Of a stretch of 64,000 nt of DNA, positions 18,749 to 20,201 are shown in pieces. Below the pieces are notes generated by a model that was not told where the DNA came from, did not search any database, and saw only the letters and a program-made list of their open reading frames with translations. This DNA is from an uncultured Nitrospirales bacterium (GTDB lineage: Bacteria; Hydrogenedentota; Hydrogenedentia; Hydrogenedentales; CAILVY01). The DNA is taken from NCBI GenBank assembly GCA_964474205.1, contig CAYYRW010000004.1, forward strand, positions 67,050 to 131,049, in the 5' to 3' direction. Made by a program: the position numbers and the translations under genes. Position 1 is the first letter of the stretch; each line of letters opens with the position of its first letter.

Positions 18749-18903
18749 CTGACTGTCACCTCCTTTACAAGGGATATTGCTTTCCGTTATGGAAAGGCTT
18801 GATTGAGTTGGGCATCTTACCAAATAACCGGCATCCGGGGCAACTTTTCCATTAATATCGTTGTCACCGCCTTGAGCACAGGTGTTTCCCCAGCAACCCT
18901 CAC

Positions 18904-19770
18904 TCAGATCAAATCAAGCTTCAAAAGGGCGGCCACCTCTTTTTTATACAATTCAAATTTAACTGCATTCTCGACGCAGGCATTTGTCTCTTCGCACCGG
19001 CTTCGGAGAATGCCTTGTATTAGAGGTACCGGCATCTTTTTGTGCGCATTTTTAATAATGGTCGTTGCAATTGATTTACGCATATCCAAGGTTACACGCT
19101 TCAAATGATTTGTGCTTGCGTCAAGGTCTTTTTGGGATTCATCGGATTTGCCGAGTAAATGAAACCGGTAGCCACGGGAAAAATGTGTTAGAAACTGCAT
19201 AAATTCCGCCATCGTCTGAATCGGTGAATGAAAGATTTTAATTCTTCCCCCGCATATTTCATAGAAGGTGTCAAGCTGTTTGAAGGCCAACCTCGACTCT
19301 TCAATGGCCCGTCGTAAGTGCTCAGTGGTTGCCGATTCCACGTTCCAAAGCGAATCCTGCCCGGCTCTTATCATGAGTTGCCTCAGCATCGCATCCTGTG
19401 GTTCAGTTCCATCCATTTCGCATAGCCTGTGATGCCGTTCAATAATGACTCCCGGCGAAACTCCATTGTTGTCAAATTCAGGGAATGTGGCCTCTCTTGA
19501 CACGCCCAACTTCAGCAGGGCATGGTGATATTCAACCTGAATTTGGACAATATACTCGAAGAACTGTCTGACAATTTGATCCAGTATGCCTGGTTCACTG
19601 TCTTCCGCTGGCAGCAGATTAAAAACAAAGGGCAACACTTTTGCACGAAATGCGCTATACGCGCGCTCCCCCCGGATAATGGCCAGCTTGCACTCGACAG
19701 GATCTCCATAAAAGGTGTAAAGACAAAGTAATCTGTTCCTGACAGTTCTGTATCGCTCCAATGATGACAT
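18904..19770 (-). CDS. Hypothetical 288-aa protein of the low-GC islet (no family recognised; possibly alpha-helical effector of a two-gene TA/defense module)
   Basis: Long uninterrupted ORF with foreign composition. Contains one Rx4H element (GGRIKIFH) that could be a HEPN-like motif, which is weak evidence. No Walker, NTase, PIN or TIR motifs seen. Confidence 0.5.
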   Translation of the reverse strand: MSSLERYRTVRNRLLCLYTFYGDPVECKLAIIRGERAYSAFRAKVLPFVFNLLPAEDSEPGILDQIVRQFFEYIVQIQVEYHHALLKLGVSREATFPEFDNNGVSPGVIIERHHRLCEMDGTEPQDAMLRQLMIRAGQDSLWNVESATTEHLRRAIEESRLAFKQLDTFYEICGGRIKIFHSPIQTMAEFMQFLTHFSRGYRFHLLGKSDESQKDLDASTNHLKRVTLDMRKSIATTIIKNAHKKMPVPLIQGILRSRCEETNACVENAVKFELYKKEVAALLKLDLI

Positions 19771-19822
19771 GCGTATCCCCTCGTTAGGTCCTATACAACG
19801 CCCTGATTAAGGATGGATGAGG

Positions 19823-20023
19823 CTATTCACAAAAGCCGGCAAGGAGTGCATCAATATCCCTTATGGCCCTTAACTCACACGGTTCCGTTTGAAAAGGAGC
19901 CTCCGGCAGGATGGTTCCATGCTGTTCCATGAGAGCGGCCGGGTCCGACGCGCCCATCATGGAATCAAAATCCTGTTGCTTCACCTCAAAAAACGGCAAT
20001 TCAATGCTAAACACATCGCTCAT
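19823..20023 (-). CDS. Small acidic hypothetical protein (66 aa), upstream partner of the 288-aa islet protein
   Basis: GGGGAGA RBS 6 nt before ATG at 20023 (MSDVFSIELPFFEVKQQDFDSMM...). Acidic (pI low), intermediate GC. 52-nt gap to the downstream gene. Confidence 0.4.
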   Translation of the reverse strand: MSDVFSIELPFFEVKQQDFDSMMGASDPAALMEQHGTILPEAPFQTEPCELRAIRDIDALLAGFCE

Positions 20024-20201
20024 AGCGCATCTCCCCGCCACGTGTTACAATTCGAAACCCATACCTCGCTACACTCGGCGTCAAAAAGAAATCATTATTT
20101 TACATCGAAAACAAGAAAATATCAAGACCTACAACTTTCCTATTTCAATCTACCACGAATATTCCTGGAAGTCAATAAAAAACACACAATATATTGTGGC
20201 G

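Follow-up and report, generated by a model that had tools for sequence, protein, structure and literature searches.

The window analysed here, a stretch of DNA of 64 kb, carries a low-GC pair of co-directional genes on its minus strand, which encode a 66-aa acidic protein and a 288-aa protein. The 288-aa protein defines a protein family that has not been described before. In other genomes, the two genes form an obligate pair, and the partners co-diverge. We tentatively favor the interpretation that this is a horizontally acquired two-gene operon acting as a mobile effector-plus-neutraliser cassette, akin to toxin-antitoxin (TA) or defence systems, a reading we hold to be plausible but somewhat short of probable. 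The defence or TA label is suggested by the layout and context of the genes.

Composition and limits of the islet

With 46.1% GC, the stretch 18824–20201 deviates from the window mean of 58.2% and is the lowest of the 1378-bp windows in the 64 kb (standard deviation of these windows, 2.8%). A preliminary description of this DNA had arrived at 42–45% GC by hand counting, which is close to the computed value. The deviation holds for GC3 as well as for GC and is chiefly a matter of codon usage: GC3 is 0.488 in the gene of the 288-aa protein and 0.552 in that of the 66-aa protein, compared to 0.65–0.79 in rpsF, ssb, rpsR, carB and the neighboring gene for a 181-aa protein.

The start at 18824 proposed earlier has to be corrected, as it falls inside the native rpsF promoter (18814–18843, minus strand) and, therefore, outside the foreign DNA. 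This promoter consists of a −35 element TTGCCC at 18843–18838 and an extended −10 element TGgTAAGAT, with the −10 at 18819–18814. Both elements are kept in the rpsF upstream regions of relatives (L017–L020), in which a leader hairpin downstream of the promoter is maintained via compensatory changes. The rpsF promoter thus bounds the foreign stretch on the right-hand side without belonging to the cassette, and the foreign DNA covers about 1.35 kb, from approximately 18850/18904 to 20201. At the other end follows the 181-aa gene (stop at 20202), a native membrane-protein gene with at least three transmembrane segments. The islet had been described as sitting precisely between the rpsF leader and this membrane-protein gene. 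Its position between the two is correct; a precise insertion, however, cannot be demonstrated, since the relatives have a different order of genes upstream of rpsF anyway.

No insertion scars were found at the borders of the islet, which have neither direct repeats nor terminal inverted repeats nor a tRNA gene. Further, an attC-like recombination site or a target-site duplication, as expected for an integron cassette, IS or MITE, is absent from the borders, and the 3′ spacer does not fold better than shuffled sequences (z = −0.25) or form an attC-like structure. A search around the cassette yielded no terminator, no integrase or transposase was seen among the ORFs listed for the 16.5–23 kb section of the window, and an Rfam scan of the islet surroundings and the whole window gave no RNA element. 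Just one other patch of the window has a comparably low GC content, and it contains classical HicAB and DUF433/DUF5615 TA pairs (pairs at 55.4–56.8 kb).

Between the stop of the 181-aa gene (20202) and the 66-aa gene lies an AT-rich control region (20042–20201, minus strand) with a GC content of 35%. A scan of 2.6 kb gave seven sigma-70-like matches, compared to 2.4 expected for the entire scanned region, and four of the seven are located in 20042–20201. A very AT-rich, promoter-like region of its own had been claimed for the islet, which agrees with these values. The consensus scan resulted in two candidate sigma-70-type promoters (20097–20175, minus strand). The distal one (20175–20147) reads TTGACT-17-TAGATT and has a TG extension, and the proximal one (20125–20097) reads TTGATA-17-TAAAAT with 10 of 12 consensus matches. 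Promoter-like hexamers are likewise present upstream of the pair in the loci L021 and L023. An imperfect palindrome with the core CCAGGAATATTCGTGG (20150–20171; inverted repeat I4, 15-nt arms, 87% complementary) is located within the spacer of the distal candidate and, judging from its sequence, is possibly an operator.

The two proteins

The upstream gene (19823–20023, minus strand) encodes the 66-aa protein. The preliminary description of an acidic ORF with a good ribosome binding site is borne out: GGGGAG is found 6 nt before the ATG, and the protein has a pI of 4.05, a charge of −10 and no transmembrane segment. Homologous ORFs of 63–77 aa immediately precede the large gene in L001–L004, L007, L012, L014, L016, L021 and L023, and a small-protein profile search gave matches with E-values of 1e-18 to 1e-29. 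The family shares the motif D[YF]..(7)..[DN]PEA.L....G[ST][IV].P; a single homologue departs from the acidic character and is basic. No family match of the 66-aa protein was found in Pfam, NCBIfam, PADLOC or PHROGs. Most type II antitoxins carry a DNA-binding domain; no recognizable domain of this kind (RHH, HTH, AbrB or Phd/YefM) was found in the 66-aa protein.

A short ORF that immediately precedes the gene of a larger conserved protein could also represent a RiPP-like arrangement, in which the small ORF is the precursor peptide and the 288-aa protein a modifying or maturation enzyme. The C-terminal 20 or so residues of the small proteins are indeed their most variable part. However, this tail is not enriched in Cys, Ser or Thr across the members, the small proteins are conserved across most of their length and thus beyond a leader, and no transporter, protease, known RiPP enzyme or recognition element is found nearby. 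We consider a RiPP-like function highly improbable.

The downstream gene (18904–19770, minus strand) is preceded by a Shine-Dalgarno-like GAGGGGA, and the ORF reported earlier at this position was confirmed. Its 288-aa product is all-alpha and has no transmembrane segment. The family is rare: 48 of 1.84 billion cluster representatives belong to it, of which only P0048 was added by a second, word-indexed search with the 43-member profile. Searches of the 288-aa protein against Pfam, NCBIfam, PADLOC and PDB sequences gave no match, in agreement with the earlier statement that the protein could be assigned to no family. Nothing below an E-value of 0.2 was obtained with the full-family profile against PDB sequences, and no recurrent family was detected when all 43 members were compared to Pfam and PADLOC. 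The 288-aa protein could be placed in no recognized toxin superfamily, and no recognizable catalytic motif was found in it. Eight polar residues are near-invariant in the family, namely Y81, D120, H196, H222, R225, D229, K232 and R258. H196 is invariant and part of a T-H-F-S-R-G motif, whereas H222, R225, D229 and K232 fall within the motif H-L-x-R-x-x-L-D-x-x-K. The structure model (pLDDT 94.8, pTM 0.92) is a bundle of long helices, 12 helices in total. A fold search with this model gave generic helical-bundle matches only, and no enzymatic precedent for the conserved polar site was found in the PDB and BFVD libraries.

Since the protein is all-helical and contains one Rx4H element (GGRIKIFH) and one RGYRFH, it could be a HEPN-type RNase toxin encoded together with its antitoxin. 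The Rx4H element had been pointed out before as a hint, but it is not conserved: of the 43 members, 4 have R176, 16 have H181 and 6 have H204. Instead, the conserved motifs read H-x-x-R. Further, neither a four-helix HEPN fold nor a HEPN profile match was found for the 288-aa protein. HEPN was rejected on account of the motif conservation, and such a toxin appears extremely improbable.

The invariant His on a long helix would also suit a histidine-phosphotransfer or DHp-like signaling protein, with the H-L-x-R-x-x-L helix as a degenerate H-box. A profile of the conserved core matched helix 2 of the Thermotoga CheA P3 dimerization domain (SHLSRITLDLQNVV) over 37 residues with an E-value of 0.003. 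When segments of the members were searched in Pfam, H-kinase_dim was hit by one of 31 (E-value of 0.15) and HisKA and Hpt by none, and homology to CheA P3 was rejected on these grounds. The local resemblance of the H-L-x-R-x-x-L-D helix to the CheA P3/DHp hairpin is treated as similarity at the motif level only. Unlike such kinases, the cassette has neither an ATPase domain nor a signaling partner, and no signaling genes adjoin the pair. A signaling role is very unlikely.

Pairing and distribution

A small co-directional ORF is situated upstream of the large gene in ten lineages (the window, P0002, P0003, P0004, P0007, P0010, P0013, P0015, P0029 and P0048), with a gap of 12–76 nt and an overlap in one case. 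Whether the genes are always paired had been raised as a check, and an upstream small ORF was present in every lineage examined. A homologous gene for 63–77 aa was found there in all nine distinct lineages with readable upstream DNA, except for the most divergent one. The identities of the partners between lineages correlate (r = 0.68, Mantel p ~0.0015). The proteins are conserved down to approximately 20% identity, and both genes are intact. Intact genes, this depth of conservation and the co-divergence of the partners argue for selection in cellular genomes and against decay.

The hosts, which include Hydrogenedentota, Nitrospiraceae and an organism with 24% GC, show a patchy distribution. 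In every high-GC host, the pair forms a discrete low-GC islet, with a GC3 lower by 0.10–0.45. The GC contents of the module and of the remaining sequence are 0.46/0.58 in the window and 0.525/0.618, 0.522/0.612, 0.424/0.607, 0.527/0.612, 0.503/0.573, 0.457/0.521 and 0.588/0.706 in the other loci. The islet usually consists of the two genes plus the promoter and corresponds exactly to the pair in five of seven loci. The comparison of orthologous rpsF loci, which had been suggested previously, showed that the pair is absent from this locus in the closest relatives (S6 proteins 82% and 72% identical). The pair recurs with identical protein sequences in independent samples. Its neighborhood differs between unrelated phyla, and most loci, including the window, are flanked only by housekeeping genes. 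Five of eight contexts are formed by ileS, tilS-hpt, icd/pfk, hisFH and DUF1559, respectively, and in L008 the low-GC island includes a tRNA gene. No mobility genes were found near the pair.

These data bear on the question of whether the two genes are native housekeeping genes whose low GC results from amino-acid composition or low expression. In the window, the pair and the flanking core genes run in the same direction, and the absent insertion scar would fit a native origin as well. Nevertheless, the deficit affects GC3, and not just GC1 or GC2, in every high-GC host, the closest relatives lack the pair, and it occurs sporadically among unrelated phyla, each time with other neighbors. A native housekeeping origin is, therefore, very improbable. 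The preliminary description had named three observations that would speak against it, i.e., a known housekeeping family, homologs that are never paired with the small ORF, and a GC content or codon usage that is not deviant when computed. All three were tested and none was made.

Candidate functions of the pair

In the interpretation as a mobile effector-plus-neutraliser cassette, an autonomous operon of about 1.35 kb with its own candidate promoter would spread as a unit among unrelated bacteria. Both proteins would be cytoplasmic, with the long-helix bundle of the 288-aa protein as the effector. Its polar set H196, H222, R225, D229, K232 and R258, together with Y81 and D120, resembles a catalytic or ligand-binding site. 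The usually acidic 66-aa protein would be the obligate partner, which may bind the effector and either neutralise or gate it, and the effector would be set free once this partner is lost or sequestered, e.g., when a phage infects the cell or under stress. Physical interaction, toxicity, neutralisation, a role against phages and the chemistry of the polar site are thus predictions of the proposed mechanism. In favor of this interpretation are the pairing, the co-divergence, the foreign composition, the patchy and rare occurrence, the TA pairs in the other low-GC patch of the window, and several links to mobile or conflict genes, namely the phrog_9168 matches described below, the defence candidates in L012 and L021, the tRNA gene in the L008 island and the SEFIR-like fusion of P0047. 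Against it speak the missing matches to defence models and to toxin or antitoxin families, the small protein without a recognizable DNA-binding domain, the housekeeping genes around most loci, the lack of mobility genes, insertion scars and viral, phage or plasmid relatives in the searches made, the pyrimidine contexts described below, and the fold search without an enzymatic precedent.

Several properties are shared with type II TA systems such as the HicAB and DUF433/DUF5615 pairs of the window. In each case, two co-directional genes are separated by a short spacer with the small gene first, and they possess their own promoter and form a low-GC islet between core genes without mobility genes. 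Further, the distribution is patchy across phyla and the partners are inherited together. As in type II TA systems generally, the pair is a conserved, adjacent and co-directional one with a short or overlapping spacer. In contrast, the proteins of the cassette are unrelated to known toxin or antitoxin families, the small protein is acidic without a recognizable DNA-binding fold, and the 288-aa protein (about 290 aa in the family) is larger than most type II toxins and, as a long-helix bundle, structurally dissimilar. The palindrome in the promoter region is the sole hint of an operator. If the pair is indeed a TA or anti-phage system, it adds two protein families, with a confidently predicted fold that has no relatives in PDB or BFVD, and these are missed by PADLOC and Pfam. 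The family is small and well delimited, and its obligate pairing, the size of about 1.35 kb including a candidate promoter of its own, and the eight near-invariant polar residues define it unusually cleanly and make it directly accessible to testing by cloning and point mutation. If, on the other hand, the pair is inert or ordinary, it is one of many uncharacterized accessory gene pairs in uncultured bacteria.

Similarity to phage proteins was detected as well. The family phrog_9168 was matched by 21 of the 43 members (best E-value of 2.2e-9), and no other library family gave significant matches repeatedly. For the 288-aa protein of the window, the match has an E-value of 2.7e-4 and covers about 65 residues (181–245, against profile positions 145–206). 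phrog_9168 is a phage or prophage family with a 267-position profile and no annotated function, and on the sequence level it is a distant relation sharing the conserved core alone. These matches, the foreign composition and the patchy distribution could indicate that the pair is a non-toxic, (pro)phage-derived accessory that is passively carried, such as a moron, the leftover of a degraded element or an anti-defence protein together with its partner. The layout, with a small acidic protein encoded ahead of a helical one, is also reminiscent of anti-defence operons. However, no other phage genes are found beside the pair in any locus. No relative of the 288-aa protein was found on viral contigs or in phage records: two viral-contig scans (2.9 million viral contigs) gave none, and tblastn of five family members against 50,697 phage records gave no match. 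A plasmid search using tblastn with the window protein was equally negative. In addition, the recurrence of identical proteins in independent samples speaks against passive carriage. We, therefore, regard an origin as phage accessory as rather unlikely.

A different hint comes from pyrimidine genes. In three of eight independent contexts, whose hosts have 58%, 52% and 70% GC, the pair is no more than two genes away from genes of de novo pyrimidine synthesis. The order is carB-181aa-pair in the window and pyrR-pyrB-pyrC-pair, all on the same strand, in L021/L022, while in L023/L024 the pair lies between pyrC and pyrB. Assuming a chance adjacency below 1% per locus, which is a rough estimate, the probability of at least three in eight is about 2e-5 before post-hoc correction. 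These three contexts are not predicted by a pure selfish-module model. The pair might, thus, be an accessory factor of pyrimidine nucleotide metabolism, such as a regulator, chaperone or enzyme, which is functionally coupled to the neighboring pyr/car genes and targets the carbamoyl-phosphate, ATCase or DHOase steps or the pyrimidine nucleotide pools. The conserved His/Arg/Lys/Asp cluster would fit a phosphorylated or carboxylated small ligand. Yet, the adjacency was spotted post hoc, and the five other contexts are unrelated to pyrimidine genes. In L023, the pyr operon is interrupted by the pair, which runs antisense to it and resembles an insertion, and the GC3 of the pair is far below that of the adjacent pyr genes in L023 (0.73 vs. 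0.94), L021 (0.45 vs. 0.56) and the window (0.49 vs. 0.75). The pair also has its own candidate promoter, and the family is extremely rare, but pyr genes are universal. No PyrR-type RNA element was found with the pair in the pyr-adjacent loci; since none was detected in those pyr leaders either, this negative is uninformative. Overall, such an accessory factor is unlikely.

The cassette interpretation can accommodate the same observation. The pair might be a conflict or regulatory module of a type not recognized so far, whose effector is a new long-helix-bundle enzyme acting on pyrimidine nucleotides or the intermediates of their biosynthesis, with H196, H222, R225, D229 and K232 as its active site, gated by the acidic partner. 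We consider this version distinctly unlikely, but a pyrimidine-targeting effector would explain both the defence-island-like behavior and why the pair has settled repeatedly next to carB, pyrB and pyrC. If true, the pair would be an immunity or addiction system that targets nucleotide pools and is built from two protein families without known relatives. Adjacency to pyr genes, seen in three unrelated hosts, leads to a concrete hypothesis on the target. A literature search on bSEFIR and on links between TA systems and pyrimidines gave nothing useful.

Returning to the TA or defence-like character of the cassette, the PADLOC check suggested earlier gave no defence-model match for either protein; among the window proteins, only Cas8a appeared (E-value of 0.039), which was judged to be noise. 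Among the 43 members, PADLOC matched only an N-terminal segment of P0047, to bSEFIR. In this marginal member (membership E-value of 5.6e-4, most conserved residues missing), a SEFIR-like segment precedes the family domain. This fusion and the locus L012 are the only links to TIR/SEFIR defence candidates (PADLOC bSEFIR, PDC-S35, PycTIR); unlike these, the window cassette has neither a TIR or SEFIR domain nor such a neighbor. In this small sample, no defence gene was evident beside the pair in the window, L007, L014 and L023. Recognized defence candidates are found nearby in two loci only: in L012, a PDC-S35/PycTIR-like TIR gene is located directly downstream of the pair in the same low-GC island, and in L021, the distance from the pair is 1 kb for a PDC-S09 gene and 8 kb for HEC-01A/B.

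Composition and borders of the islet beside rpsF

The stretch 18824-20201 has a GC content of 46.1%, compared with 58.2% for the whole window (standard deviation 2.8% among 1378-bp windows), and is the lowest-GC stretch of 1378 bp within the 64 kb. Most of the deficit falls on third codon positions (GC3 of 0.49 in the 288-aa gene and 0.55 in the 66-aa gene versus 0.65-0.79 in the neighbours rpsF, ssb, rpsR, the 181-aa membrane-protein gene and carB); the low GC is, therefore, not simply an effect of amino acid composition. Both co-directional ORFs of the preliminary description, encoding 66 aa (19823-20023) and 288 aa (18904-19770), are present on the minus strand, each preceded by a Shine-Dalgarno-like sequence. 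The promoter-like region which had been placed at 20042-20200 was also found: the 160-nt upstream spacer (20042-20201; 35% GC) contains several sigma-70-like hexamer pairs, the best being TTGATA-17-TAAAAT and TTGACT-17-TAGATT with a TG extension, and an imperfect palindrome lies within the spacer of the latter candidate promoter. The order on the minus strand is carB, the 181-aa gene, the 66-aa gene, the 288-aa gene and rpsF-ssb-rpsR-DUF2232-rplI-dnaB. The 181-aa protein (20202-20747, minus strand; native GC of 60%) has at least three TM segments, matches nothing in Pfam or NCBIfam and is a singleton cluster in a collection of 15 billion proteins; at no other locus does it form part of the cassette.

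The proposed start at 18824 had to be corrected. In an alignment with relatives, the native rpsF promoter (-35, 18843-18838; -10, 18819-18814) is conserved along with a hairpin in the rpsF leader, so that this coordinate cuts native sequence. The relatives share a -10 region ATTTG[G/C]TA[A/C][G/T]AT (window, 18749-18843; 7900-8000 in both L017 and L019, two of their rpsF regions), and compensatory changes keep the hairpin stem (CTTTCC...GGAAAG in the window, TTCCCC...GGGGAA in L017). Rfam has no family for this hairpin and gave no hit at gathering score across the 64-kb window; it may represent a type of S6/S18 autoregulatory leader that Rfam lacks.

The usual marks of an insertion are missing: neither flanking repeats nor a tRNA nor a structured 3′ element was found at the islet. 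An integron, IS or MITE passenger was rejected for lack of border repeats or structure. In the closest available relatives (S6 82% and 72% identical), the rpsF-to-dnaB operon is kept and the pair is absent; their upstream neighbourhoods also differ from the window, so there is no clean empty site. A native gene of odd composition, which would agree with the unmarked borders, is highly unlikely given this absence and the composition of the pair in other hosts.

A rare protein family with an obligate upstream partner

Apart from the 288-aa protein, a word-indexed search of 5.8 billion proteins returned only two relatives (34% identity). When 1.84 billion representatives were searched exhaustively with a profile, 48 proteins reached E ≤1e-3, 15 of them with E ≤1e-30. 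The family is thus genuine, though very rare. In each lineage with obtainable DNA or a gene table (the window and the representatives P0002, P0003, P0004, P0007, P0010, P0013, P0015, P0029 and P0048), the family gene is directly preceded by a small co-directional one of 63-86 aa. The nine readable small proteins and a partial tenth (contig L009) are homologous and share the motif D[YF]..(7)..[DN]PEA.L....G[ST][IV].P; their profile recovers the upstream ORF of every locus with E-values of 1e-18 to 1e-29. Only at L015, whose member is the most divergent of those examined, does the abutting upstream ORF have no detectable similarity. The pairwise identities of the small partners correlate with those of the large ones (r = 0.68, Mantel p ~0.0015, nine pairs); the two genes are, therefore, passed on and exchanged together. 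Both genes are real, and their pairing is obligate. A small gene coupled to a larger one could also be a RiPP-like system, to which we give a very slim chance. Most small proteins are strongly acidic (pI 4.0-5.2), while the Hydrogenedentota homologue is basic.

As previously supposed for the larger protein, neither product belongs to a recognised family in Pfam, NCBIfam or PADLOC; no Pfam or PADLOC family recurs across the 43 aligned members, and a full-length profile found nothing significant among PDB sequences. No TM segments occur in either window protein. A very confident AlphaFold2 model of the 288-aa protein built from the 43-sequence alignment (pLDDT 94.8, pTM 0.92) has twelve helices, five long ones forming the core (residues 3-33, 60-88, 147-173, 184-205 and 209-245), and searches of solved-structure and viral-model libraries gave no specific match to this fold. 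H196 is invariant within T-H-F-S-R-G, and H222, R225, D229 and K232 are conserved in H-L-x-R-x-x-L-D-x-x-K, whose spacing places all four on the same face of a helix; R258, Y81, L85 and D120 are shared by 39-42 of the 43 members. Together these residues suggest a helical hairpin bearing a putative site for catalysis or ligand binding. The Rx4H element GGRIKIFH, noted earlier as a hint, is not conserved (R in 4/43 members, H in 16/43), and a HEPN toxin is, consequently, scarcely credible. A DHp, CheA-P3 or HPt domain was rejected, and a DHp-like signalling protein is very unlikely: the core profile matches CheA P3 helix 2 with an E-value of 0.003, but the corresponding Pfam model recognises only one of 31 core segments (E 0.15) and no signalling genes lie beside the pair.

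Through the conserved core, 21 of the 43 members match phrog_9168, a phage family of unknown function (best E-value 2.2e-9). This would fit a passive (pro)phage-derived accessory or anti-defence pair. On the other hand, carriage by phages or plasmids was rejected, as tblastn gave nothing against 50,697 phage records and 72,556 plasmids and no relatives turned up when 2.9 million viral contigs were scanned twice by pattern; we consider such an accessory rather improbable. The two protein families are undescribed, their sole library relative being this PHROG without known function. The core may be a modular domain, as two unusual architectures hint. In the truncated P0045 (203 aa), nothing but the conserved two-helix core (THMSRA ... 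HLKRVYLD) is left, joined to a C-terminal TM helix. In P0047, a marginal member of 455 aa, the N-terminal segment is SEFIR-like (PADLOC bSEFIR, E 2.9e-15) and precedes a degenerate family domain.

Hosts and genomic neighbourhoods

The pair behaves as foreign, mobile DNA. A Hydrogenedentota MAG, a Nitrospiraceae MAG and an organism of 24% GC are among those that carry it, and in every high-GC host the GC content of the module is below that of the rest of the contig (window, 0.46 versus 0.58; L001, 0.525 versus 0.618; L004, 0.522 versus 0.612; L007, 0.424 versus 0.607; L012, 0.527 versus 0.612; L014, 0.503 versus 0.573; L021, 0.457 versus 0.521; L023, 0.588 versus 0.706), with GC3 deficits of 0.10 to 0.45 across loci. 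In sliding windows, the low-GC islet is exactly the pair and its promoter in the window, L007, L014, L021 and L023. In L012 it also takes in the TIR-domain gene downstream and a gene of 334 aa, and in L008 about 2.4 kb of unknown ORFs with a tRNA gene. The window's cassette locus recurs with identical protein sequences in two other samples.

Candidate defence genes lie near the pair in L012 and L021, and the SEFIR-like segment of P0047 is a further hint of defence. In L012 (11121-13220), the 352-aa protein directly downstream, in the same low-GC island, has a C-terminal CAP12/Pycsar-type TIR domain (Pfam CAP12-PCTIR_TIR, PADLOC PDC-S35 and PycTIR models); the following 334-aa protein has no family match. 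In L021, a gene for a small nucleotidyltransferase of the PDC-S09 type (11962-12261) is 1 kb from the cassette homologue, and a complete HEC-01A/B pair (AAA_21 ATPase and DUF4276; 18417-20233) is 8 kb away; upstream are an HNH gene and a Y1 transposase gene. In the Nitrospiraceae contig L008, a divergent gene just upstream of the cassette (2734-3234; 121 aa in one record, 166 aa in another) encodes a Fic-like C-terminal winged-helix domain, and the tRNA gene (6029-6102) lies 1.6 kb downstream.

In three of the eight independent contexts (hosts with 58%, 52% and 70% GC), the pair adjoins de novo pyrimidine genes: carB (20795-24115) and then the 181-aa gene precede it in the window, pyrR-pyrB-pyrC precedes it in L021/L022 (L021, 6637-9521), and in L023/L024 it lies antisense between pyrC and pyrB inside the pyrR-pyrB-pyrC operon (L023, 4171-8434). 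By a rough estimate, this adjacency appears to be far above chance even with post-hoc correction and could reflect an insertion hot spot or a functional link. An accessory of pyrimidine metabolism is nevertheless unlikely, as the remaining contexts are unrelated to pyrimidines (ileS, tilS-hpt, icd/pfk, hisFH and DUF1559) and the pair retains its foreign GC3 and its own promoter at the pyr loci.

A toxin-antitoxin-like reading and the second low-GC patch

It is possible, and we tentatively prefer this reading, that the pair is an autonomous, horizontally mobile effector-plus-partner cassette which works like a toxin-antitoxin (TA) or abortive-infection module. Its effector would be the helical protein of 288 aa, which the small upstream protein would neutralise. 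Layout, obligate pairing, co-divergence, composition, patchy distribution and some of the neighbours point in this direction. Against it, neither protein has a known toxin, antitoxin or defence signature, no DNA-binding antitoxin domain is present, and the flanking genes are mostly housekeeping ones; the position beside pyr genes does not fit either. Of the novel defence or TA module originally suggested, the organisation holds, and the function stays tentative; the probability not taken up by the named readings goes to something else. The organisation is of a familiar kind, a small two-gene mobile cassette, and both protein families are new. The cassette is a clean, testable candidate, yet one among many uncharacterised accessory pairs.

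The sole other comparably low-GC patch in the window (55.4-56.8 kb) shows that small low-GC islets here are demonstrably TA cassettes. This second-lowest patch (55460-56912, 47.4% GC) holds two classical TA pairs on the minus strand, a HicB-like gene (55678-55884) with HicA (within 55460-55843) and DUF433 (56537-56761) with DUF5615 (56147-56533). A 148-nt direct repeat (55890-56037 and 56765-56912, 90% identical) flanks the DUF433/DUF5615 pair and is the insertion scar of this cassette. It duplicates the 3′ end of a 525-aa MurJ-like flippase gene (56818-58395), and the ORF 55943-56068 repeats the flippase C-terminus '...SHALKIPEFQDLLGGLRRR'.
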